Assembly: GCA_002773855.1 (NCBI GenBank)
Contig: PEZY01000012.1
Span: forward strand, 367,847-431,846
DNA: 64,000 bases
Source of the DNA: Candidatus Buchananbacteria bacterium CG10_big_fil_rev_8_21_14_0_10_33_19
GTDB taxonomy: Bacteria > Patescibacteriota > Patescibacteriia > 2-01-FULL-39-33
Direction: 5' to 3'
Every line of letters starts with the position of its first letter. Position 1 is the first letter of the stretch. The notes under the pieces were generated by a model. The model saw only the letters and a program-made list of their open reading frames with translations, ran no database searches and had not been told where the DNA came from. A program made the position numbers and the translations under genes. Shown here piece after piece: positions 2,914 to 59,229 of this stretch.

Positions 2914-4698
2914 CTAAATAATTATTAAAATAATCAAAAGACTAATAAACACCAAACTAGATATTATCATCTTAAGATTTTGTTTTTTAAATTGAATAAA
3001 TATATTAATCAAGAGCGTTGCAACAATCAAACCTAACATTATTTTATAAATAGTCGCTGAAATCGAGAATAACCAATTAACATTGCCAGATTTACTATCT
3101 TTAGCAAAAAAATACTGTTGGGTTAAAGAAGCTTTAACTGGTTTAATGCCATCCCATGATACGTCGGTTGTTACTGAATTGCCAGCGTAGTCGGTCGCTG
3201 TAACACTAGGCAAAACCACTGGATTAAATAACTGTTCATTTTCTTGATTAAATATAATAGTGCTGCCAGTCCATTTGGTTGGCAAGCTAATATCTGGCTG
3301 AAGATCTATTTTATAATTACCAAATGAAACACTAGCGTTTTTAGTATCACTATCTAAGAAAACTTCAGCTCTAACTATTTTTTGCTCTTTGTCGTTAGCC
3401 TCTAGGACAAATAGTTTACTGGCTTCAATATTAATAGCTGGTGGAATTTGATCCAATGACACCCTATAAACATCTGAAGACAACGTTTTTGAACCATTAC
3501 TAGCTTCAAATCTTAAATTATTTTCACCTTCACTCAAAGACAAGCTAAATTCAAAATTACCGTCTTTAGAATTAGTTAACTCTAAATATTTTACATCATT
3601 TAAATAGACATTTAGTGTCTTAGCCGATACAGCTAGAACACTAAAATAAGTGGGATTTTCATTAACCACTGAATCATTTTTAGGATAAGACAAGATCGGC
3701 ACAGACAAAGAAGATGCAATAATCTTTTCACCAAAAACTTTTTGACTGGAATCACTAACAACAGTATTTTCATTTGGTTCTCGTGTTACTATATTAGCTA
3801 CCGGAATATCATTAACAGACCCAAAAAACTGAGCTACTAGCGTCGTATCATAACCATTAAACTTACCACTTACCACTCCCACACCAATTTCAGTAAAATC
3901 TGGATCAATTATATTAGCATAATGAGTCTTACTCTGAACCCAAGCATTAACCACGTCAGCCGCATCAACAAAACCCATGGCTAAATTTTCACCAGCCGTG
4001 CTATAAGTATAATTATTTTTCCGTAACCAATAACCTAACCCCTTCTTTTTTGGACTAACATGAGCAAAATACTGTTCAGTTAACATATCCTGAGCTTTTT
4101 CATAAGCGCCTTTATTTAGAACATCATTTTTGATCAATAAGTTTAAACCCAAACTACTTCTAATTTCATTGGTTAAATTTATAATTTTCTCCGCTTGCTT
4201 TTTAGAAACATCTGGCGTCACCCAAGCACTTAACGGTAAACTAACTACAAATATTACAATTAATAGTTTAATAGCAATAGCCGATACTCCATAAGCAAAT
4301 AAACTATTGGTTTTTAAAATTTTTGGTGAAAACTGATTACCTGAATAAGAAAAAAATAAATCCTTCAAATAACCACCACCTCTAGGATTTTTACCTTGTT
4401 TAATAGCCTCACCATCTGGCACACCATCACCATCAGAGTCAGGATTATTAGGATCGGTTTGATAAATTTTTATTTCTTCGTAATCAGAAATACCATCACC
4501 ATCCGAGTCGGGGTTATTGGATTTAGTGCCATAAAGCTTTTCTTGATAATCACTTAGACCATCACCGTCGGTATCAGCCATTATTCGAATTCTGTCTGAT
4601 AATTCTTTTACTTTTAGTTCTAATTTTTTAGACTTTAAATCAATATCACTTTTAGGTGTGACAATTATTTTTTTTCTACTTTTAATAGTCTTTTTCAT
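2914..4698 (-). CDS. Membrane-anchored protein with thrombospondin type-3-like Ca-binding repeats and a CAP/SCP (PR-1, YkwD-like) domain
   Basis: Three D.DGDG..D repeats (DTDGDGLSDYQE, DSDGDGISDYEE, DSDGDGVPDGEA); CAP motifs (HYANIIDPDFTEIGVGVV, GENLAMGF); internal and C-terminal TM helices. Confidence 0.6.
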   Translation of the reverse strand: MKKTIKSRKKIIVTPKSDIDLKSKKLELKVKELSDRIRIMADTDGDGLSDYQEKLYGTKSNNPDSDGDGISDYEEIKIYQTDPNNPDSDGDGVPDGEAIKQGKNPRGGGYLKDLFFSYSGNQFSPKILKTNSLFAYGVSAIAIKLLIVIFVVSLPLSAWVTPDVSKKQAEKIINLTNEIRSSLGLNLLIKNDVLNKGAYEKAQDMLTEQYFAHVSPKKKGLGYWLRKNNYTYSTAGENLAMGFVDAADVVNAWVQSKTHYANIIDPDFTEIGVGVVSGKFNGYDTTLVAQFFGSVNDIPVANIVTREPNENTVVSDSSQKVFGEKIIASSLSVPILSYPKNDSVVNENPTYFSVLAVSAKTLNVYLNDVKYLELTNSKDGNFEFSLSLSEGENNLRFEASNGSKTLSSDVYRVSLDQIPPAINIEASKLFVLEANDKEQKIVRAEVFLDSDTKNASVSFGNYKIDLQPDISLPTKWTGSTIIFNQENEQLFNPVVLPSVTATDYAGNSVTTDVSWDGIKPVKASLTQQYFFAKDSKSGNVNWLFSISATIYKIMLGLIVATLLINIFIQFKKQNLKMIISSLVFISLLIILIII

Positions 4699-4890: not shown

Positions 4891-6243
4891 TTAAATTGGA
4901 TAATCACCGGTCATACAAGCAAAACAATAATCATCTGGATTATCGACTAAGCTTTTCAAATCTTCAACTGATAAAAATTCCAAAGAATCAGCACCGCATT
5001 CTTGTCTAATTTCTTCTTTAGAATGATTGGCTGCTATTAATTCACTTTTATTAGGTGTGTCTATACCATAATAACATGGTGAAATTATCATTGGAGAAAC
5101 AATGCGTAAATTAATACTTTTAGCGCCAGCAAATCTAATTAAACCCACTAAACCACGCATAGTTGTTAATCTAACGATCGAATCATCCACTACCACCACA
5201 TCCTTACCTTCAACTAATCGACGAATAATGATAAATTTTTTGCGGACTGCCAAGTCTCTAAGATATTGAAATGGTAAAATAAATGTCCTACCAATATAAT
5301 GATGCCGAGCAATGGCCCTGACAGAGCTAATCCCCATTTCATTAGCATAGCCCTCTGCGTGATAAACTGCCGAATCAGGCACACCAACAACACAATTAGT
5401 ATTAGTTGGGCAAACTTGGCAAAGTTTTTTACCAGCTCGCAAATGAAAATCTACTACCGCTTCATCAAAAACCACACTACCAGGATGAGAATAATATATT
5501 TTTTCAAAAATACATTGTGCTTTTTTATGGTTAGTTGGACTAATATAAATAGAATTTTCGTCAAAAAAATATGACTTAGATTCATTTTTACTGACAATTA
5601 ATATCTCGCCTGGCTGAACACTTCTTTTAGTGTTAACGCCCAAGCTTTCAAATGAAACTGTTTCTGACGAAAAGTAAAGACTATCGCCAAATTCACCTAT
5701 CGATAAAGGGCGATTTCCCCATGGATCACGTATAGCAATAACTGTATCATCAAACAAAATTAACAGCGAATAACTGCCTCGTAAAAATTTAACCGAGTCA
5801 TAAATCCTATCAACCAAACTCTCAGCCAATGACTCACAAAATAATCGTAAAATTATTTCAGTATCTATTTTTGTTTTTAGTCTTTCAGGGTGTTTTAATT
5901 TAGTTATTAATTCTGAGTAATTAACCAAATTACCATTATGAGCAATGGCTACTTCCCGATTATTAAAAACTCCTAAAATCGGTTGGGCATTATCTGCCTT
6001 AGGATTGTCTTCAACTGTTGAATAGCGAATATGACCAATGGCACATTTACCATGAAGCTTATCCAAGGTATCTTGATCAAAAACTTCTTGAACAATACCC
6101 TTGGCCTTATGACAAAAAATATTTGAACCGTCACTAGAGGCTATGCCAGCATACTCTTTGGCTCGATGCTGGATAGCATGACCCATAACATAGCAGATTT
6201 CTGCTGCTTTACGACAATTAAAGGCACCGAAGACTCCACACAC
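4891..6243 (-). CDS. purF: Amidophosphoribosyltransferase (glutamine-PRPP amidotransferase)
   Basis: N-terminal MCGVFG (Ntn Cys), class-II GATase fold, PRTase motif VVVVDDSIVRLTT, C-terminal Cys cluster. Confidence 0.8.
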   Translation of the reverse strand: MCGVFGAFNCRKAAEICYVMGHAIQHRAKEYAGIASSDGSNIFCHKAKGIVQEVFDQDTLDKLHGKCAIGHIRYSTVEDNPKADNAQPILGVFNNREVAIAHNGNLVNYSELITKLKHPERLKTKIDTEIILRLFCESLAESLVDRIYDSVKFLRGSYSLLILFDDTVIAIRDPWGNRPLSIGEFGDSLYFSSETVSFESLGVNTKRSVQPGEILIVSKNESKSYFFDENSIYISPTNHKKAQCIFEKIYYSHPGSVVFDEAVVDFHLRAGKKLCQVCPTNTNCVVGVPDSAVYHAEGYANEMGISSVRAIARHHYIGRTFILPFQYLRDLAVRKKFIIIRRLVEGKDVVVVDDSIVRLTTMRGLVGLIRFAGAKSINLRIVSPMIISPCYYGIDTPNKSELIAANHSKEEIRQECGADSLEFLSVEDLKSLVDNPDDYCFACMTGDYPI

Positions 6244-24587: not shown

Positions 24588-25140
24588 TGTCTAGATAAAT
24601 CTATAAGCCGAATTCTGTTCCTGATGGGTCTGTCTCCAAATAGTCTTTTGTTTATAAGTTTTCACAATTTTGAAATAAATTTTTTAAACAATTTTTAAAG
24701 TTTAGTGGAGCTAAGCTGAAAAAATTTTTATAAAATTTAGACAAAATTTGGAAATTTTAACAAATATGCTATTTGGTGACAGACCCATACAAAGAGATGA
24801 CAATCTATCTGGATTAACTATTACTAGTTAATTCTAGCCCCCTACTATATTTGGGGTTGCACTAAGTAGAGTTTACCACGAACTGCCGGTCACCGACAGC
24901 TGAGTCACGTAGCTTTAGACTAAGGGGATATCCCGTTCTTATTCTAAAACATCATGACACTTTTCACCTTTCATTTGCCGAAGCAAACTAGTATTGTCTC
25001 TGTGGCACTGGTCCTAACTATACCTCGCGATATAGCTGGTGGGCGTTACCCACTACCATGACTTTAATCATAGTGATTAAAGAGTGTTCGGACTTTCCTC
25101 TCCGATTAAAACCGGAGTAGTCATCCAACTTATCTAGACA
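24588..25140 (-). ncRNA. rnpB: RNase P RNA (bacterial type A) with a long AT-rich insertion
   Basis: Ordered conserved elements on the minus strand: P1 (5' gucuagauaag / 3' cuuaucuagac), P3 hairpin, P4 5' strand GAGGAAAGUCCGAAC, GGUAACGCC, AGUGCCACAGAGA, GGUGAAA, GGUAAACUC, and P4 3' strand ACAGAAUUCGGCUUAU with compensatory GG/CC to AA/UU change versus E. coli. A consensus promoter puts the TSS at P1. Confidence 0.8.
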
Positions 25141-43020: not shown

Positions 43021-43347
43021 ATGGTCGTGAATGATTTTGAAATTTGTCATTGTAGATGTCATAATAATCCAAACATAATGCACTGCATGCCTTGTTGTCT
43101 ACCTTGTCATTATTGTGGAGCTAATATTAAACATTTTTATTTTGAAAAACATGTAACTGATTGTCAAGCGGCCATCAAAAATCAATGTACTAGTGACAGC
43201 GAATTATGTGATTGCGCCTTTCATCAATTACCAAGCCGTTGTTCGCCAGCTTGCTGTAAAGAATGCCCTAAATGTAAGTTGCACATTAAAGAAAAATTCT
43301 TTGCTGAGCATCTAGAAAAATGCTCGGGTAAAAAACCCAAAAAATAA
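43021..43347 (+). CDS. Small Cys/His-rich zinc-finger protein, family member 4 (two tandem finger modules, 108 aa)
   Basis: The ATG at 43021 follows the same aacaagaaagggt RBS context as member 3; ICHCRCHNNPN…CCLPCHYCGANIKHFYFEKHVTDC plus a second CDCAFH…CCKECPKCKLHIKEKFFAEHLEKC module; the ORF-track frame 42850-43347 is an upstream extension overlapping gene 3. Confidence 0.5.
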   Translation: MVVNDFEICHCRCHNNPNIMHCMPCCLPCHYCGANIKHFYFEKHVTDCQAAIKNQCTSDSELCDCAFHQLPSRCSPACCKECPKCKLHIKEKFFAEHLEKCSGKKPKK

Positions 43348-43348
43348 A

Positions 43349-43376
43349 AGTCTCAGACAATGAGACTTTTTTTATT
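43349..43376 (+). terminator. Terminator after zinc-finger array
   Basis: agtctca-gacaa-tgagact + T7. Confidence 0.7.
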
Positions 43377-44547
43377 TACCAACACTATAAAATCTATTGC
43401 GTCTTTTGCGTCGCCCCGCCGAATTACCAAATCGATGAGCTTCATCTCTAGCTTTAGTAATTAATTCCCGTTGGGACTTAGCCAACTCTTTAACGGCCAT
43501 ACTAGTTTTAATTGGAAAAACCATTCTATCTCCGGCCAATTTAGACAAGCCAATAATTGGAATACTAATACCAATTCTTTTTAAAACTTGATTGACATAA
43601 TCAATCTGTGGCTTACCGCCATCAATTAAAATTAAATTAGGAAATGGCCACTCAATGTGTTTAAATCTTCTCGTCAACATTTCTTCTAGACTTCTCAAAT
43701 CATCACTAGCTGGCGCCGTTTTAATATTAAACAAGCGATACTGATCTTTAGCTAATTGACCATTAATAACCACTGACATCGCGCCAACCGTTTCTTGACC
43801 AGTAAAGTGTGAAATATCATAACCCTCTATTCGATTTTTACCATGATTATTACTAAGTTCATCTTTGGTAATTAGTGTCACATCTTGAATATTTTTTAAA
43901 GCCGATAACACTTCGGGATTTTCTTTTTTTAATTTTGCCAGCAACCTTTTCTTTTCACCTTTAAACAATAAAACAATATTTAAAATATTTTTCTTATAAT
44001 CTTTTTTATTAATTTCCCCAATACAAGTACCGGGACATAATCCCACTTGATAATCAAAACAGGGTTTACCAGAATTTGGCGTGCAAGTACTATAAGGGAA
44101 AATCCGTCTGATAATTCGTAAAGTATTTTTTAACAACGTGGCATTTTGATAAGGTCCAAAAATATAAGCATCGGTAGTTGGAAACTTATTTAATTCTCGT
44201 TCCCGAATAATAATGGGGTAAGCATAATCTTTTTTAGAAATTACAATAAAAATAAACGACCGATGATCCTTATCCTTCACATTATACTTAGGCCAATGTT
44301 TTTTAATCAAATTAGCTTCCAAAATAATCGCTTCTAACACTGTGTCGGTTTGCTGGTGTTTAATATTTTGCGCTAAAGACACCATTTCACTAATTCGCGA
44401 ATCAATATCGAGTCGAAAATATTGCAAAACTCGACGCCGCAGACTAGTGGCGCGACCAATATAAAGAATCTCGCCCTTTTGGCCGATGAACATATACACC
44501 CCCGGTGTTAATGGTAAATTTTTCGCTAAATCTTTAATGTTTTTCAT
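43372..44547 (-). CDS. uvrC: UvrC-like excinuclease, short form (GIY-YIG + RNase H-like endonuclease domain; no UVR or (HhH)2 domains)
   Basis: N-terminal GIY-YIG (GVYMFIGQKGEILYIGRATSLRRR), Cys-rich box CFDYQVGLCPGTC, C-terminal IEGYDISHF…LILIDGGKPQI endonuclease domain; only 391 aa. Confidence 0.65.
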   Translation of the reverse strand: MKNIKDLAKNLPLTPGVYMFIGQKGEILYIGRATSLRRRVLQYFRLDIDSRISEMVSLAQNIKHQQTDTVLEAIILEANLIKKHWPKYNVKDKDHRSFIFIVISKKDYAYPIIIRERELNKFPTTDAYIFGPYQNATLLKNTLRIIRRIFPYSTCTPNSGKPCFDYQVGLCPGTCIGEINKKDYKKNILNIVLLFKGEKKRLLAKLKKENPEVLSALKNIQDVTLITKDELSNNHGKNRIEGYDISHFTGQETVGAMSVVINGQLAKDQYRLFNIKTAPASDDLRSLEEMLTRRFKHIEWPFPNLILIDGGKPQIDYVNQVLKRIGISIPIIGLSKLAGDRMVFPIKTSMAVKELAKSQRELITKARDEAHRFGNSAGRRKRRNRFYSVGK

Positions 44548-44898: not shown

Positions 44899-44944
44899 TT
44901 TTACCATAAATTGTTATACTAGCCTTATCGTGGAGGAAAAAATC

Positions 44945-45223
44945 ATGTTCATTCACAAAGAAATATATAACAAAATTTTCCACCAACCATTATTTCAACT
45001 AGATTTAAGTGGCGGTAAAGGTATACTTCTGATTCACAATTTACTTTGGGTTGTCGGTTTTACTATGATTATTACCGCTGTCGGCTATGCCTTGGGTCTT
45101 TATGATGAAACTGAAAATAAAAAAGATTTCAAAATTCCCAAAGATGTTATTTATATTTTCTTTATCGGACTAGCAATATTTTTAGCTAGTTTTTATGTTC
45201 CTATCCCTATTGTGCGTCAATAG
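44945..45223 (+). CDS. Small membrane protein (2 TM), hypothetical
   Basis: GGAGG RBS before MFIHKEIY…; two hydrophobic helices; the ORF-track start at 44930 is less likely. Confidence 0.4.
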   Translation: MFIHKEIYNKIFHQPLFQLDLSGGKGILLIHNLLWVVGFTMIITAVGYALGLYDETENKKDFKIPKDVIYIFFIGLAIFLASFYVPIPIVRQ

Positions 45224-45257
45224 GGATTTTTTATCATATAAATATCTTCATAAACCT

Positions 45258-45481
45258 GCGACAATTAAAAAATTTAAGGAGAAGATGAAACGAGAGCCCT
45301 GGCGATTGGGCGTCGTCTACATCCAAAATTTTCAACTGTTTGAACCATTTTCGACATATCTAGAATAATGAAAATGGTGAGTTTTGAAAATTAGCCAGGC
45401 GAAGTTTTAGATTCGACTATAAATTTTTTACTGTCGCGATTTTTGCGGTACTTTTTCTAAAAAAGTACCAAGGTGATTTAG
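45258..45481. repeat. Copy A of a ~225-bp hairpin-rich direct repeat (downstream of uvrA)
   Basis: About 85% identical to 48125-48356; conserved blocks gcgacaatt…aaggagaagatgaaacgagagccct.gcgattgggcgt.gtctac…gttttgaaaattagc…cgaagttttag.ttcgactataaattttttactgtcgcgatttttgcggtactttttctaaaaaagtacca. Confidence 0.75.
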
Positions 45482-45520
45482 AATAAAATTAGAAATTGAA
45501 AATTGAAAATTAATCCAAGT

Positions 45521-48115
45521 CTATTTCAAATACTCCTTAATATACTTGCCGGTCACACTCTTGGGGTCTTTCATCACCTGCTCTGGTGTCCCCTTAGCTA
45601 CAATATAGCCACCACGGTCGCCACCCTCGGGACCTAAATCAATTACATAATCAGCGGCATGAATAATATGTAAATTATGTTCAATGACGGCAATGCTATT
45701 TTGTCGATCGATTAATTTGTTTAATACTCCTAACAACAGTTCAATATCATGATAATGTAAACCAACAGTTGGCTCGTCCAGTAAATACAAAGTTTTTCGA
45801 CCCAAAGTATGCGTTAACTCTCTAGCCAATTTTATCCGCTGAGCTTCACCACCAGACAAAGTGGTCGCACTTTGACCTAATTGTAAATAACACAAGCCAA
45901 CTTCCTGTAAGACCTTTAATTTATCAGTGATCTGATAATGAGTATCAAAATAATCTATGGCCTCATCAATGGTTAAAGCTAGTACTTCGGAAATATTTTT
46001 ACCCTTATATTTCACCTGCAAAGTCTCCCGATTAAAACGCTTGCCATGACAGACTTCACACTCCACTGTTACCGCTGGCAAAAAATGCATTTCAATTAAA
46101 TTAACACCAGCCCCATCACAAGCTTCACACCGACCGCCCGGACGATTAAAAGAAAACCGCGACAAAGTATAACTTCGCTCTCGTGATTCTGGCAACATAG
46201 CAAAGAATTCTCTAATTGGTGTAAAAATACCGGTGTAAGTGGCTGGATTAGACCGAGGCGTTCGACCAATTGGCGATTGATCCACAATCACCACCCGATT
46301 AATATATTCAGTGCCAATAATTTTTGACACATCTTCTAAGTCCTCTTTTTTAACATTGGTCGCCAGTCGTGGATTGGCTTTTATTTTTTGAACATTTTTA
46401 TATAAGACATCATATAACAAAGATGATTTACCGCTACCAGACACCCCAGTAATACAGACCATTTTTCTAAGTGGAATATCCACTTGAACATTTTTTAAAT
46501 TATTAGCTCGCGCCCCAATAATTTTAATGGCTTCGCTAGTTGTCGTTCTTCTATTTGAGGCAGTTTCAATAAATCTCTCGCCTCGTAAATATTCTAAAGT
46601 CAAAGATTTTTGGGGATTAGTCTTTTTTAATAATTCTTTAGTCTCACCAATCGCTACTACTTCACCACCATGACGTCCAGCCAGTGGCCCTAAATCCACT
46701 AGATAATCCGAAGCCATAATTGTCCGCTCATCATGCTCGACAATAATCACGCTATTACCCTGATCTTTTAAAGCTTTTAGAGTTTTAATTAATCTTTCGG
46801 TATCTCTTTCGTGTAAGCCAATAGTTGGCTCGTCAAGTACATAAAGGGTTTTAGACAAATGCGAACCGATTTGTGAACCCAGTCTAATTCGTTGCGCCTC
46901 GCCACCAGATAATGTTTCCGCTTCGCGACTAAGCGACAAATAATTTAAACCTACCTGCAACAAGAAATCCAAACGATCACCAATCTCAATCACGACATTT
47001 TCGGCAATTTCTTTTTGACGGCTGGTCATTTTATTATGATAATCCACAAAAAAAGCATAAGCCTGTTCTATCGACAACGCACTGACTTCGGCTATATTTT
47101 TTTTATTAATTTTAACTGCCAATGGTTCGGCTCGCAATCTTTGGCCATGACACGACAAACAAGGTTCAATATTTTTCTCATATTTATTTTTATACTCACC
47201 TATTTCTTCGCCTTGATCATCAAATTTCTTTTTGGCTCCCCATTCTACTACTCGGCCTAAACCATTACACTTCTCACAAGCTCCGTGTGGACTATTAAAA
47301 GAAAATAATCTTGGCTCCACTTCAGGAAAGGCAAAGCCATCATTAGGGCAAGTCCAATTAGAGGACAACAAAAATTCTGGACTATCTTGTTTCTTTTCTC
47401 TAAACAAAGCAATAGCCAGTCCAGTGGCATAATTAATTGAATTTTCTACCGCTTCCGACAAACGACCTTCATCACTAATCATCACGCGATCAATCACAAT
47501 ATCAATACTGTGCTTGCTATGTCTAGCTAGTTTTACTTTTTCATGTAGCGAATAAAATTGACCATCAATTCTAGCTTCGGAAAAACCCAAAGCTAAATAA
47601 TCATAAAGCAACTGATAATATTCCCCTTTTCTATCGACGACAACAGGTGAAAGAATAGTAACATATTCTTCGTCCAACTCTTTGGCCCGGGATTTGATGA
47701 TATCAATCATCTCATCGAGTGCTAATTTATCAATTTTATGATTACATTTTGGACAATAAACTTCTCCTAACCGAGCATATAAAACGCGCAAATAATCATA
47801 AATTTCAGTCAGGGTGCCGACGGTAGACCGTGGATTATGCGACAAAGCCTTTTGGTCAATAGAAATAGATGGCGCTAGGCCAATGATTTCATCAACATCA
47901 GCCGGTTTCATTTGGCCCAAAAATTGCCGGGCATAAGGTGACAAAGATTCGATATAGCGTCGTTGGCCTTCAGCAAAAATGGTATCAAAAGCGAGTGATG
48001 ATTTACCACTGCCGGAGACACCAGTAAAAGCCACCAACTTGTTATGGGGTATTTCTAAACTAACATTTTTTAAATTGTGTACCCGCGCTCCACGGATGAT
48101 TATACTATCTTTCAT
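45521..48115 (-). CDS. uvrA: Excinuclease ABC subunit A
   Basis: Two ABC ATPase modules ([10 protein letters not shown] twice; LSGGEAQRI signature twice); zinc-finger Cys pairs. Confidence 0.9.
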
Positions 48116-48124
48116 ATTATATAA

Positions 48125-48356
48125 ATAAATTAATGCGACAATTTTAAAATTTAAGGAGAAGATGAAACGAGAGCCCTAGCGATTGGGCGTTGTCTACGCC
48201 CAAAATTTTCAATGTTTGAGAAACTTGTTCACTTATTTAAATAAAAAAGTTTCGAGTTTTGAAAATTAGCGGGACGAAGTTTTAGCTTCGACTATAAATT
48301 TTTTACTGTCGCGATTTTTGCGGTACTTTTTCTAAAAAAGTACCAATGTGATTTAG
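48125..48356. repeat. Copy B of the ~225-bp direct repeat (between uvrB and uvrA)
   Basis: See copy A; contains hairpins gggcgttgtctacgccc, cgaagc…cttcg and ggtactttttctaaaaaagtacc. Confidence 0.75.
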
Positions 48357-48382
48357 TGATATAAAAAACTATCCCAAAAAAC

Positions 48383-50224
48383 TTATTTCTCCACCACATC
48401 CAACATACTCTCAATATCTTTTTTAATCGTCTGAGGCGTAATCTTATATTTTTTATTGTAAGCCAATTGTAATTTCCTTCTTCTTTCTACTTCTTCAATC
48501 GCCCGCTTCATTGAACCGGTTTTTTTATCAGCATATAAAATCACTTTACCATCCACATTTCTCGCCGCTCGACCCATGGTCTGAATAAGCGCTTCCTCGC
48601 TTCGCAAGAAACCTTCTCGGTCAGCATCCATAATCGCCACCAGTGTTACCTCTGGTAAATCTAAGCCCTCGCGCAGTAGATTAACCCCCACCAAAATATC
48701 AAACTGACCCTCTCTAAACTCTTGCAAAATCTCGGTGCGTCTAAAAGTTTTGACATCACTATGCATATAGGCCGCTTTAAAGCCATTTTTCTGTAAATAA
48801 GCATCCAAATCTTCAGCCATTTTCTTGGTCAAGGTGTTAACAATCGCTCGTTCGCCTTTTTTAATTACTAATTTTAATTCTTCAATCAAATCGTCTACTT
48901 GGCTAATATTTTTCTTTTTATCAAACACTTGTCTAATTTCTATCGGTGGATCCACTAAGCCAGTTGGTCTAATCACTTGCTCGGCAATCGTCTTTGAATG
49001 TTTTATCTCCCAATCCCCTGGTGTCGCTGAAGTAAAAACCGTTTGACCAATACGTTCTAAAAATTCATCAAATTTTAATGGTCGATTGTCGAGGGCACTT
49101 GGTAATCGCCAGCCGTACTTAATTAAATTTTCTTTTCTGGCTTTATCGCCAGCATACATACCTCTGACCTGTGGTAAACCAATATGCGACTCATCCATCA
49201 CTAATAAAAAGTCTGGTTGGCCATTTTTATCCTTCGGGAAATAAGATAACAACGAATCTGGCGCCTCGCCAGATAATTTACCGGTCAAATGCCGAGAATA
49301 ATTTTCAATCCCATGACAATACCCCAAACTCCTTAACATTTCCATATCGTATTTAGTTCGACGTTCTAATCTTTCGGCTTCCAAATATAAATTATTTTTG
49401 TTATAAAATTTTAAACGATCTTTTAACTCCACTTTAATATCAGTAATAGCTCTCTCTATTTCTGGTTTAGTGGAAATAAAATGCTTGGGTGGAAAAATAA
49501 TGATATCTTTTAAACCCTCTATAATATGCCGAGTGGTTTTATCAACAATACCAATATCACTAATTTTTTGATCAGCTAATTCTAACCGATAGATTACATC
49601 CTCACCGGCTGGCCGAATTTCAAAGACATCGCCTCTTACCCGAAATGATCCCCTTACCAATTCACCAGTAGTTCTAGTAAATTGAATTTTAACTAACTGA
49701 GAAATTAAATCATGGCGAACAATATTTTGATCAATTTCTAAATGAAGTGATGACTGAGTATAGCTAACTGGTAAACCCAAATTATAAATACAGGACACGC
49801 TGGCTACAATGATGACATCACGCCTAGTCGCTAGAGCACTAGTCGCTTGATGACGCAATCTGTCTATTTCTTCGTTGATCATCGCTTCCTTTTCAATATA
49901 AGTATCACTAGTTGGCATATAAGCCTCTGGCTGATAATAATCATAATAAGATACAAAAAAATTAACACTGTTATCCGGAAAGAAATTTTTATACTCACGA
50001 TAAAGCTGAGCGGCCAAAGATTTATTTGGTGCCATTACCAAAACTGGCCGATTAAAATCAGTTATCAAATTAGCGGCCGTAAAGGTTTTACCAGAGCCCG
50101 TCACTCCTAGTAAGGTTTGAAAATCATTACCTATCTTAAGACTCTTAATTAGAGACCTAATCGCTTGGGGCTGATCACCAGTTGGCTGAAATTTTGATTT
50201 TAACTTAAATATTTTATCTGTCAT
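48383..50224 (-). CDS. uvrB: Excinuclease ABC subunit B, short form (no C-terminal UVR domain)
   Basis: Helicase motifs (GVTGSGKTF, DESH, QTMGRAARN), beta-hairpin region; 613 aa, ends before the UvrC-interacting coiled-coil (no …LEFEEAA..RD… motif). Confidence 0.85.
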   Translation of the reverse strand: MTDKIFKLKSKFQPTGDQPQAIRSLIKSLKIGNDFQTLLGVTGSGKTFTAANLITDFNRPVLVMAPNKSLAAQLYREYKNFFPDNSVNFFVSYYDYYQPEAYMPTSDTYIEKEAMINEEIDRLRHQATSALATRRDVIIVASVSCIYNLGLPVSYTQSSLHLEIDQNIVRHDLISQLVKIQFTRTTGELVRGSFRVRGDVFEIRPAGEDVIYRLELADQKISDIGIVDKTTRHIIEGLKDIIIFPPKHFISTKPEIERAITDIKVELKDRLKFYNKNNLYLEAERLERRTKYDMEMLRSLGYCHGIENYSRHLTGKLSGEAPDSLLSYFPKDKNGQPDFLLVMDESHIGLPQVRGMYAGDKARKENLIKYGWRLPSALDNRPLKFDEFLERIGQTVFTSATPGDWEIKHSKTIAEQVIRPTGLVDPPIEIRQVFDKKKNISQVDDLIEELKLVIKKGERAIVNTLTKKMAEDLDAYLQKNGFKAAYMHSDVKTFRRTEILQEFREGQFDILVGVNLLREGLDLPEVTLVAIMDADREGFLRSEEALIQTMGRAARNVDGKVILYADKKTGSMKRAIEEVERRRKLQLAYNKKYKITPQTIKKDIESMLDVVEK

Positions 50225-55707: not shown

Positions 55708-56217
55708 ATGCAACCAAATTTAATCGTCAAAAAATCAGGTATCGCTGGACAAGGTGTTTTTACTACCGTTAACTTTAAAGCTGGACAATTAATCACTGCG
55801 CTAATCGGCCGACGAATGTCAATGGAAGAAATGATCAAGACTGTTGATGCTGGCCTCGAAGCTGGCTCTGACCCCTTGCAAATCGGCGATGAAACTTATT
55901 TAGATTTAGAAGAATTATACAGAAGCATCAATCATTCCTGTGATCCCAACAGCTATATTAGTGGTGAAAATAAGTTAAAAGCGCTTAAAGCGATCAAACC
56001 TGGCGAAGAAATAACCTTTGACTACTCCACCACTATGAACGACAATGAGGCCAAGTTACTAGAGAGTGATAGCATCCTCTGGACGTGTAAATGTAAGTGC
56101 GGAGCCAAAAATTGTCGAAAAATCATTGATCAATTCAAAACTCTACCCCAGTGTCGTCAAAAATTTTATTTAGACAATAAACTAGCACCGGATTTTATTT
56201 TGAAAAAGTTTGGTTAA
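55708..56217 (+). CDS. SET-domain protein lysine methyltransferase (with post-SET Cys cluster)
   Basis: GQGVFT, NHSCDPN and EITFDYS SET signature motifs; C-terminal WTCKCKCGAKNC post-SET; 5 nt downstream of the ATPase. Confidence 0.7.
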   Translation: MQPNLIVKKSGIAGQGVFTTVNFKAGQLITALIGRRMSMEEMIKTVDAGLEAGSDPLQIGDETYLDLEELYRSINHSCDPNSYISGENKLKALKAIKPGEEITFDYSTTMNDNEAKLLESDSILWTCKCKCGAKNCRKIIDQFKTLPQCRQKFYLDNKLAPDFILKKFG

Positions 56218-56228
56218 AATTATCAACC

Positions 56229-56256
56229 AAAAAACCACCAAACGGTGGTTTTTTAA
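56229..56256 (+). terminator. Terminator after SET-domain gene
   Basis: aaaaccacc-aaac-ggtggtttttt. Confidence 0.7.
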
Positions 56257-56271
56257 ATTTAAATTAAGCTA

Positions 56272-58945: not shown

Positions 58946-59108
58946 GCAGGGATTTACGACGTAAACCGCCTGCCAAAAGCAGGACGGTTTACTCTGTCCT
59001 GGGTTGGCGTCTAATCTGCCACCGGCAGATTATTCGACGTTCGCTGTGTCGTTTCGGCTTCCGCCTCCACTCCTGGCTCACTTCCAACCCGTTCGAATCC
59101 CTGCCCCC
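58946..59108 (+). other. GC-rich structured element (~165 nt) of unknown function beside tRNA-Gln; tRNA-derived ends
   Basis: Closed by a 13-bp helix (5' gggggcagggatt / 3' aatccctgccccc). The 5' end belongs to a 27-nt direct repeat of the tRNA-Gln 3' end. The 3' end is an inverted 18-nt copy of the tRNA T-loop/acceptor. Internal hairpins (caggac…gtcctg; atctgcc-acc-ggcagat). A bidirectional terminator follows at 59121-59152. Confidence 0.4.
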
Positions 59109-59120
59109 TCCGAAAAATAA

Positions 59121-59152
59121 AACAAAAACACCGCTTCCAGCGGTGTTTTTGT
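59121..59152. terminator. Bidirectional hairpin terminator (A-tract/T-tract flanked)
   Basis: acaccgc-ttccag-cggtgt hairpin between aaaaataaaacaaaa and tttttgtttt. Confidence 0.65.
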
Positions 59153-59158
59153 TTTATG

Positions 59159-59229
59159 CTCGGGGGCAGGGATTCGAACCCCGATACCTTGGACCAGAAC
59201 CAAGAGTCCTACCGTTAGACGACCCCCGA
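59159..59229 (-). tRNA. tRNA-Gln (anticodon CUG)
   Basis: Minus-strand cloverleaf folded by hand: acceptor UCGGGGG/CCCCCGA (U1:A72), D-arm GUCU-AACGGUA-GGAC, anticodon arm CUUGG-UUCUGGU-CCAAG, T-arm CGGGG-UUCGAAU-CCCUG, discriminator G; CCA not encoded. Confidence 0.8.

Follow-up and report, generated by a model that had tools for sequence, protein, structure and literature searches.

A multi-copy family of rod-shaped structured elements with two members beside uvrA in a Patescibacteria genome

The excision repair genes uvrB, uvrA and uvrC are encoded on the minus strand of a 64,000-nucleotide (nt) stretch of DNA, hereafter the window, taken from contig PEZY01000012.1 (positions 367,847 to 431,846) of Candidatus Buchananbacteria bacterium CG10_big_fil_rev_8_21_14_0_10_33_19. 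Two direct repeats, copy A and copy B, bracket uvrA in this window (Table 1). Copy B occupies the 267-nt spacer between uvrB and uvrA, copy A lies 3' of uvrA, and both are antisense to the uvr genes. A preliminary description of this DNA had noticed two similar copies beside uvrA, one 3' of the gene and the other 3' of uvrB and 5' of uvrA. The blastn comparisons bear out the pair, and the open reading frames (ORFs) with their Pfam matches bear out the gene context. The copies are 85% identical over 252 nt (blastn, E ~3e-75) and 88% identical over 227 nt in a further blastn comparison, with fainter similarity extending upstream as far as 45232 and 48115. Neither blastn nor a covariance model run with its filters off found a third copy in the window; weak model matches at 56177-56263 (an ordinary terminator), 59073-59212 (the tRNA region) and 43292-43380 (15 bits) were rejected as noise. 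The analysis below shows that A and B are paralogous members of an undescribed family of structured elements of ~165-225 nt.

The identity between A and B is distributed as a mosaic, reaching 92% in the 5' arm, 93% in the 3' arm and 98% in the tail, and just 52% over ~48 central columns. The head of A fits the family consensus, the apical loop of B has diverged, and the arms of B are closer to A than to the positional orthologue of B in a relative (L015, described below). Because the arms are near-identical but the heads differ, the pattern points to gene conversion between the two sites, or to a duplication that was itself mosaic (patchwork). Stretches of 59 and 32 bp, in direct orientation, are perfectly identical between 45380-45481 and 48255-48356, the 59-bp one at 45409-45467 and 48284-48342. 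Identical direct blocks flanking uvrA could permit recombinational loss of the gene; uvrA is retained in all six same-species contigs examined, along with whatever portions of both copies fall inside them, and contigs with identical UvrA carry identical repeats. A 7-bp triple repeat had also been reported after copy A. A tandem of AAAATTG does exist there, but it is weak, and it falls outside the family unit. A GAAATT-rich sequence like this A-side tandem adjoins the uvrB stop codon in another relative, L018.

Each copy is predicted to fold into a ~185-nt rod with a side hairpin and a conserved head; downstream of the rod come a U5 tract and a second hairpin. The 5'-end UGCGACA pairs with UGUCGCG ~170 nt downstream, which makes the whole unit one long irregular rod whose arms, P1-P4, comprise about 36 pairs. 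The minimum free energies for A and B are -67 and -64.7 kcal/mol on the plus strand and -61.8 and -61.0 kcal/mol on the minus strand, with shuffle z-scores of folding between -5.2 and -7.5 across both copies and both strands. The preliminary description had listed three conserved small hairpins in each copy. The first and third belong to the conserved fold, but the second (CGAAG..CTTCG) is not kept in relatives, and its bases pair with the 5' arm in the consensus fold. The dominant feature is the long-range rod pairing, which that description did not mention. A loop-loop pseudoknot between the P5 loop and the apical loop (UCUA/UAGA in A) was considered and dropped, being conserved in neither L015 nor L016.

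The uvr loci of relatives were obtained through UvrA homologues and compared by blastn and by eye. Two covariance models were used, R1 built from A and B alone and R2 from five full-length members (A, B and the units at L015, L016 and L010). The possibility had been raised that the repeat is unique to the uvr locus; instead, copies lie at other loci and in other genomes. Two of them are positional counterparts of the window copies: L015 carries a unit at 881-1104 in the uvrB-uvrA spacer, like B (UvrA 90% identical; R1 96 bits, R2 171 bits), and just ~25 nt of a 5' arm is left 3' of its uvrA, and L016 carries a unit at 2614-2839, 3' of uvrA, in the place and orientation of A (UvrA 87% identical; R1 92, R2 186 bits). 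A full-length match is present at L010 3117-3338 (R1 82 bits, R2 191 bits), together with a short subtype of 164 nt, which has no P5 and a short P7, at L010 3367-3542 and 4806-4981 (R2 68-72 bits). An orthologue of the L010 unit, cut by a contig end, lies at L020 8539-8601 (YchF 91% identical). A diverged unit at L021 2254-2431 (R2 41 bits) sits between RNase T and FolD in the same metagenome-assembled genome as L015. Fragments of the 3' part occur at L010 4986-5097 and at L017 2731-2828, and L017, whose UvrA is 88% identical, holds the fragment only. Four further relatives with 82-88% UvrA identity (L012, L013, L014 and L018) have no element near uvr, where we found nothing or unrelated small opposite-strand ORFs. 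A sequence at L016 5644-5851 (minus strand) scores 21.9 bits with R2 (E 0.001) and may be a distant relative of the family.

The L010 and L019 sequences appear to come from the same species as the window, on the basis of an ENA sample shared with L001, the same NCBI organism name on YchF and an identical 3' module. Three units and at least two fragments are crowded there into 2 kb, between YchF, a hypothetical gene and FolD, and the remaining 15 kb of L019 contain no unit. In about 85 kb of this species (the window plus L019) there are 5 full units, and no transposase was seen. Scanning the metagenome_contigs collection with the 20-mer TGTCGCGATTTTTGCGGTAC led to L010 and L007, in both of which the final 54-62 nt of the unit recur with 100% identity to copy B and are joined to a different long hairpin. 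The matches to the same 20-mer in L008 and L009 are chance hits inside coding regions, as is a pattern match among viral contigs (L022), which yielded no true match; the sole hit in the genome_contigs collection, L011, is a chance match to a Saccharibacteria signal peptide. Contigs known to carry the window escaped both 20-mer scans, which shows that neither collection covers this organism completely. The family spans a narrow group of ultra-small groundwater Patescibacteria whose proteins are named Ca. Falkowbacteria or Ca. Buchananbacteria in the source databases; the NCBI name on the window UvrA is 'Candidatus Falkowbacteria bacterium', and its nearest relatives are labeled 'Buchananbacteria'.

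Table 1. Features of the uvr locus, of the two repeat copies and of their surroundings in the window. Helix and loop boundaries are those of the predicted fold; R1 and R2 are the covariance models defined in the text.
Feature	Position	Strand	Remarks
Copy A, full unit	45257-45481	+	Rod, U-tract, 3' hairpin and 12-nt tail; R1 274 bits, R2 245 bits
Copy B, full unit	48134-48356	+	Arms and tail 92-98% identical to A; head diverged
P1	45257-45263 with 45432-45438 (A); 48134-48140 with 48307-48313 (B)	+	UGCGACA/UGUCGCG; covaries
P2-P4 arms	45266-45303 (5') with 45394-45430 (3')	+	5' arm holds the non-conserved AAGGAG-ATG at 45276-45287
P5 side hairpin (hairpin 1 of the preliminary description)	45306-45326 (A); 48183-48203 (B)	+	Covariation
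Head	45327-45392 (A); 48204-48267 (B)	+	Most sequence-conserved part of the family
P6	45327-45335 with 45384-45392	+	Part of head
Internal loop	CUGUUUGA 45336-45343 opposite GAGUU 45379-45383	+	Part of head
P7	45344-45353 with 45369-45378	+	Part of head
Apical loop	45354-45368	+	Part of head
3' arm of rod	45394-45438	+	Includes former hairpin 2 (CGAAG..UUCG), unsupported by the family fold
U-tract AUUUUUGC	45439-45446 (A); 48314-48321 (B)	+	Directly after the rod
3' hairpin (former hairpin 3), GGUACUUUUU-CUA-AAAAAGUACC	45447-45469 (A); 48322-48344 (B)	+	Covaries
Tail	45470-45481	+	End of copy A
-10-like boxes, copy A	45237-45243 (TATAAAT); 45249-45254 (CATAAA)	+	Upstream of A
-10-like box, copy B	48120-48126 (TATAAAT)	+	5 nt from the uvrA start codon (other strand)
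uvrA	45521-48115	-	864 aa; Pfam UvrA_inter; bracketed by copies A and B
uvrB	48383-50224	-	613 aa; Pfam UvrB
uvrC	43372-44547	-	Pfam UvrC_RNaseH_dom
Tandem AAAATTG x3.9	45485-45511		Tandem Repeats Finder score 40; between copy A and the uvrA stop; outside the family unit
Small predicted membrane-protein ORF	44930-45223	+	92-97 aa; immediately upstream of copy A; no Pfam match
Canonical terminator of the small ORF	45203-45227	+	Upstream of copy A
RNase P RNA (class A)	24757-25136	-	126 bits; with the tRNA, the only Rfam gathering-threshold matches in the window
tRNA	59159-59229	-	Rfam gathering threshold

Covariation was assessed on the five-member model alignment, covariance-model alignments having replaced MAFFT ones, in which the stems were out of register and from which RNAalifold derived a poor consensus. 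Standard pairs make up 94.0% of the 351 pair cells, a share that drops to 39-49% if the 3' partners are shifted by 1-3 columns. Double-sided, compensatory changes occur in 46 of the 72 pairs, and none of 500 shuffles reached any of the observed measures. Helices 2-4 show double changes in 23 of 29 pairs, and all seven pairs of helix 5 (P5) are compensatory. P1 occurs as GCGACA/UGUCGC, GCAGCU/AGCUGC, GCCAGU/ACUGGC and CGAGC/GCUCG, and the outer pairs of helix 8, the 3' hairpin, vary as GGUAC/GUACC, CCCCAC/GUGGGG, CCUAC/GUAGG and GUUAC/GUAAC around an invariant ACUUUUU-CUA-AAAAAGU core. Judged by compensatory change across five sequences in a model-fitted alignment, the element has the character of a conserved structured RNA.

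Sequence conservation is concentrated in the head (top of P6, internal loop, P7 and apical loop), which is 68-80% identical between lineages (A, L015, L016 and L010); the arms, whose sole requirement would be to pair, are 34-60% identical. Two invariant head motifs flank P7, (C/A)UGUYUGA on its 5' side and GAGUU on its 3' side. They form an asymmetric internal loop (5' YUGUYUGA opposite GAGUU 3'), which in the modeled fold may contain tandem G.A pairs stacked on the apical stem P7. The apical loop, 15-20 nt long, has the motif YGACnnAUnUAAAUAAAUGA. The U-tract after P1 is likewise kept, as GAUUUUUGC, GAUUCUUGU, UAGUUUUUAU or GAGCUUUUGG.

Three features distinguish the two strands. The shared pairs contain 19 G.U cells in 13 columns versus 3 A.C cells, with one G.U pair kept in four of the five members; the plus-sense fold is the more stable by 2.4-12.7 kcal/mol in six of seven members, and equal in L015; and G exceeds C on the plus-sense strand in all eight members. 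Together, the wobble pairs, the folding energies and the G>C skew favor the plus strand of the window as the RNA strand. The first two tell correspondingly against a functional minus-strand RNA, in which the 19 G.U cells turn into C.A mismatches (only 3 conversely) and the fold is weaker in six of the seven members. On that rather improbable explanation, the hairpins within the uvrB-uvrA mRNA would stabilize its 3' end or intercistronic region, be cleaved by RNase III, or terminate transcription partially and so set uvrB:uvrA levels. The arrangement of the genes suits it, for in six of eight contexts the unit lies just downstream of an opposite-strand gene that reads into it (uvrA, uvrB, YchF, FolD), and uvrA has no canonical terminator of its own. 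The fold is also very stable on that strand (-61 to -64 kcal/mol, z -6.6 and -7.5), where the rod is followed by AAUUUAUUUAUAU. However, one unit (L010 3367-3530) has no gene reading into it, and a terminator or stabilizer needs no conserved internal or apical loop. Moreover, if a terminator between uvrB and uvrA were efficient, uvrA would be left without transcription, as it has no promoter-like site itself.

Our preferred reading, held with moderate confidence, is that the units constitute a multi-copy family of small non-coding RNA (sRNA) genes that would be transcribed from the plus strand. Transcription would begin at an ATAAAT-type -10 box just ahead of P1 and would end at the U-tract or the 3' hairpin. 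An ATAAAT/TATAAT-like box stands 2-9 nt ahead of P1 in all eight members, and the subfamily of A and L021 has a better, TATAAT-type box 15-17 nt ahead of it. In every member a G+C-rich P1 is followed on the plus strand by a AUUUUUGC-type U-tract, an arrangement that resembles an intrinsic terminator. A terminator scan flagged sub-hairpins only, a 185-nt hairpin being beyond what the scan can score. A partner, either a protein or a second RNA, would bind to the conserved head, for which the long arms would be a stable handle.

The two uvr copies could have an additional role as a consequence of their position. A consensus scan detected no promoter-like site on the minus strand between uvrB and uvrA, so uvrA is probably co-transcribed with uvrB through copy B, and a plus-strand RNA of B would then be a true antisense partner of the spacer. 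The RNAs of A and B would match the uvrA 3' end region and the uvrB-uvrA intercistronic RNA, respectively, with perfect complementarity, and could thereby add a cis-antisense action. More tentatively, we propose as a possible model an undescribed rod-shaped, multi-copy sRNA class of one Patescibacteria lineage, in which covarying arms would present the conserved head (the tandem-G.A loop and a ~17-nt apical loop) to a putative protein or RNA partner, and in which the uvrBA copies would double as antisense regulators.

Several observations weigh against reading the units as sRNA genes. No -35/-10 pair directly upstream of A or B passes a consensus promoter scan, and protein genes of these genomes show clear TTGACA-N17-TATAAT promoters. 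The -10-like box is ambiguous, because on the minus strand it reads as a U-rich tail behind the rod, and no U-run follows the 3' hairpin. G.T wobbles are tolerated in single-stranded DNA hairpins too. Fitting the alignment with an RNA model in the plus orientation somewhat inflates the covariation and the G.U counts, and the covariation set has just five full-length members, of which A and B are near-identical and not independent. Finally, the multi-copy occurrence, the local clusters and the piles of 3' fragments resemble a repetitive or mobile element more than a typical sRNA gene.

This last point leads to the explanation that the units are palindromic repetitive DNA elements, non-autonomous and mobile, like REPIN, Correia elements or the Rickettsia palindromic elements (RPE), with a hairpin that is selected as single-stranded DNA or kept by hairpin-templated repair and with RNA that is incidental. 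We consider it unlikely, even though it accounts for the occurrence of more than one copy and subtype within a single genome and for their crowding into intergenic hot spots (L010/L019, and two in the window), for a presence or absence that varies among close relatives and for the convergent genes that flank most copies. The truncated 3' modules of L010 and L017 and the 5' remnant 3' of uvrA in L015 are also in keeping with it; the losses, however, resemble ragged deletions and not precise excisions. A ~20-bp inverted repeat does lie near the unit ends, but it is internal (45258-45280 with 45415-45437), and conservation continues for 44 nt to its right and 10-25 nt to its left. The unit is asymmetric, with the -10-like box on the left (and 12 more conserved bases in one subfamily) and the U-tract, second hairpin and tail on the right. 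No direct repeat that could be a target-site duplication was found in the flanks of any of the eight members compared. The preliminary description had offered a miniature inverted-repeat transposable element as one option, and a classical element of that sort is contradicted by the missing target-site duplications and by the asymmetric conservation beyond the inverted repeat on both sides. Conservation also extends to features that are not palindromic, namely the internal loop, bulges and one G.U pair, and it is stronger in the head than at the ends, whereas in a transposon it is the termini that are conserved. The density is low at 5 full units in about 85 kb, and no transposase was seen nearby.

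The unit can also be compared with the established palindromic families. REP/REPIN, ERIC, the Neisseria Correia elements and RPE are likewise multi-copy and intergenic, often lie between convergent genes and form long imperfect hairpins; they too show compensatory arm changes, can lie in operons and be transcribed, and come with fragments and subfamilies. In contrast to these, the unit described here is longer and asymmetric, lacks target-site duplications and a GTAG-type REP signature, has its highest conservation in the apical head, occurs at low copy density and has no RAYT or other transposase seen with it.

Another explanation is a cassette tied to the nucleotide excision repair (NER) genes, such as an SOS operator, an attenuator or a riboswitch-like leader; the preliminary description had listed a terminator/attenuator cassette among its options. 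The two copies bracket uvrA, and orthologous copies occupy the same uvr positions in two relatives. However, other members have neighbors that are not uvr genes (YchF, a hypothetical gene and FolD in one case, RNase T and FolD in another), and the four relatives with 82-88% UvrA identity mentioned above lack the element near uvr. The two copies run antisense to the uvr genes, and what follows A and B on the plus strand is antisense to uvrA and uvrB, so neither copy has the co-oriented downstream gene that a riboswitch or attenuator leader would control. In A and B only (45432-45450 and 48307-48325, plus strand), UGUCGCGA can pair with UUGCGGUA, followed by CUUUUUCU, as a terminator-like alternative that competes with P1 and the 3' hairpin; riboswitch-like switching through this hairpin was rejected, the hairpin being absent from L015, L016 and L010. 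A check for a DNA-damage-responsive operator within the repeat had been suggested as well. The Cheo box is a CGAAC-N4-GTTCG-type palindrome, and the CGAAG-N6-CTTCG palindrome of the repeat, although perfect in copy B, differs from it in both bases and spacing and is absent from L015, L016 and L010. The copies away from uvr thus largely refute an NER-linked cassette, which we regard as extremely improbable, and a link to nucleotide excision repair is not supported.

A functionless local duplication left by a uvrA/uvrB rearrangement, or a gene for a small protein or type I toxin, is very improbable too. The 88% identity of A and B and the short distance of 2.9 kb between them are what a local duplication would leave, but other genomes have relatives at each of the two positions, relatives also occur at other loci, and their base pairs have evolved in a compensatory way, which refutes a unique local duplication. 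For a small protein there is an AAGGAG-ATG start in A followed by a 27-codon frame (MKREPWRLGVVYIQNFQLFEPFSTYLE*), and the Shine-Dalgarno sequence of A is masked by long-range pairing of the 5' and 3' parts, a feature also of type I toxin mRNAs. In B, however, the frame ends after 5 codons (MKREP*), the corresponding place in L015 and L016 has no Shine-Dalgarno sequence with ATG, and the 27-aa peptide is not hydrophobic. Small ORFs of the MKMVSFEN type in the head were rejected, having no Shine-Dalgarno sequence and no conserved frame or start. The units therefore lack coding potential, in agreement with the preliminary description, which had judged the frame not conserved and the repeats non-coding; among the options it listed, a duplicated sRNA gene is the one that the evidence favors, with about an even chance of being correct.

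Database searches returned no known family. At gathering thresholds, an Rfam 15 cmscan of the 64-kb window, with models that include 6S, Y RNA-like, HEARO/omega RNA, fstAT, riboswitches and ribozymes, found nothing at the repeats. A permissive scan of 45150-48450 gave chance-level matches only (fstAT at 20 bits against a threshold of 72, rncO at 20 against 43), and L010, L015 and L016 gave nothing at E<=1. Blastn against phage collections produced no match, and a full-text literature search no description of such an element.

Among known RNAs, 6S RNA is similar in its length of ~190 nt, its paired 5' and 3' ends, its long irregular helix with internal loops and a terminal loop, and the possibility of paralogues. 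It differs in that the folds predicted here have no central open-promoter-like bubble, in that our element has many copies per genome and in the extra side and 3' hairpins; the Rfam 6S-type models gave no match even at E<=10. Cis-antisense RNAs and multi-copy sRNA families such as LhrC and Qrr share a small unit opposite a gene and sibling copies close together. Unlike these RNAs, the element has no seed-like C-rich loop, and its structure is kept across loci with unrelated neighbors, which means that an antisense target cannot be its common function. TIGR arrays, with the box C/D-like guide RNAs of Patescibacteria and phages, share the host group; their units are 36-nt tandem repeats with two 9-nt spacers beside a Nop-domain Tas gene (PMC12045711). 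The AUGUYUGA...GAGUU of the head is faintly like box C/D (RUGAUGA...CUGA) and could likewise hold tandem G.A pairs. A TIGR array is excluded: the units here are solitary, 165-225 nt long and without spacers or tandem arrangement, and the genes near them are uvrB, uvrA, uvrC, SOD, YchF and FolD, with no Tas gene nearby. Nor do we accept the internal loop as a k-turn or box C/D motif, since its geometry, with 5-6 nt before GA on one strand and GUU after GA on the other, misfits the standard k-turn. The element is thus a new family within a known general kind, and its nearest analogues in kind are the dispersed palindromic repeats and rod-like sRNAs such as 6S, although features that define each of these were looked for and not found.

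The Patescibacteria (the candidate phyla radiation, CPR) have tiny genomes with few known regulators and are thought to be poor in mobile DNA, and to our knowledge almost no non-coding RNAs have been described from them beyond the universal ones. Our full-text literature search found no such sRNA family described in these reduced, episymbiotic bacteria. A covarying, multi-copy element of ~200 nt at the same sites across species is sizeable for a genome of ~1 Mb and points to either an unrecognized RNA-based function or a self-propagating palindromic element. Either outcome would be a useful handle on CPR biology. The structure signal is strong, and the host group is little explored. The repeats are not evidence for a new mechanism of DNA-repair control.

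The uvrB-uvrA junction itself is a variable hot spot in the clade, and whatever is inserted there runs antisense to the operon. In L014 uvrB and uvrA adjoin directly (6000/6001). They are separated by a 139-nt AT-rich spacer in L018 and by the structured element in the window and L015; unrelated opposite-strand ORFs with strong promoters are found there in L012 (148 aa, 5419-5865) and L013 (75 aa, 3094-3321). In the window, uvrA has no recognizable Shine-Dalgarno sequence, its start codon (48113-48115) is 18 nt from copy B, and the minus-strand sequence upstream of it (48116-48133) is TTATTTATATAAT. On the other side of the gene, the small membrane-protein ORF between uvrA and uvrC, convergent to uvrA, is conserved across the clade; in L012 and L013 it has 63-72 aa and ends in ...MYIISF(F/Y)IP....

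A second, unrelated palindromic repeat family, with the sequences ATTGCTTCG...CTCGCAATGAC and GTCATTGCGAG...CGAAGCAATC, occurs at L010 5115-5200 and at about 2830-2960 of L017 (minus strand, 3' of uvrA). It is inserted beside the 5' part of the element or replaces it, and the window has no copy. Other long-hairpin leaders of ~200 nt lie behind canonical TTGACA-N17-TATAAT promoters at about 6230-6440 of L013 and at L016 5644-5851, both on the minus strand. Small ORFs follow these leaders directly, encoding a 72-aa membrane protein in L013 and products of 66 and 79 aa in L016.

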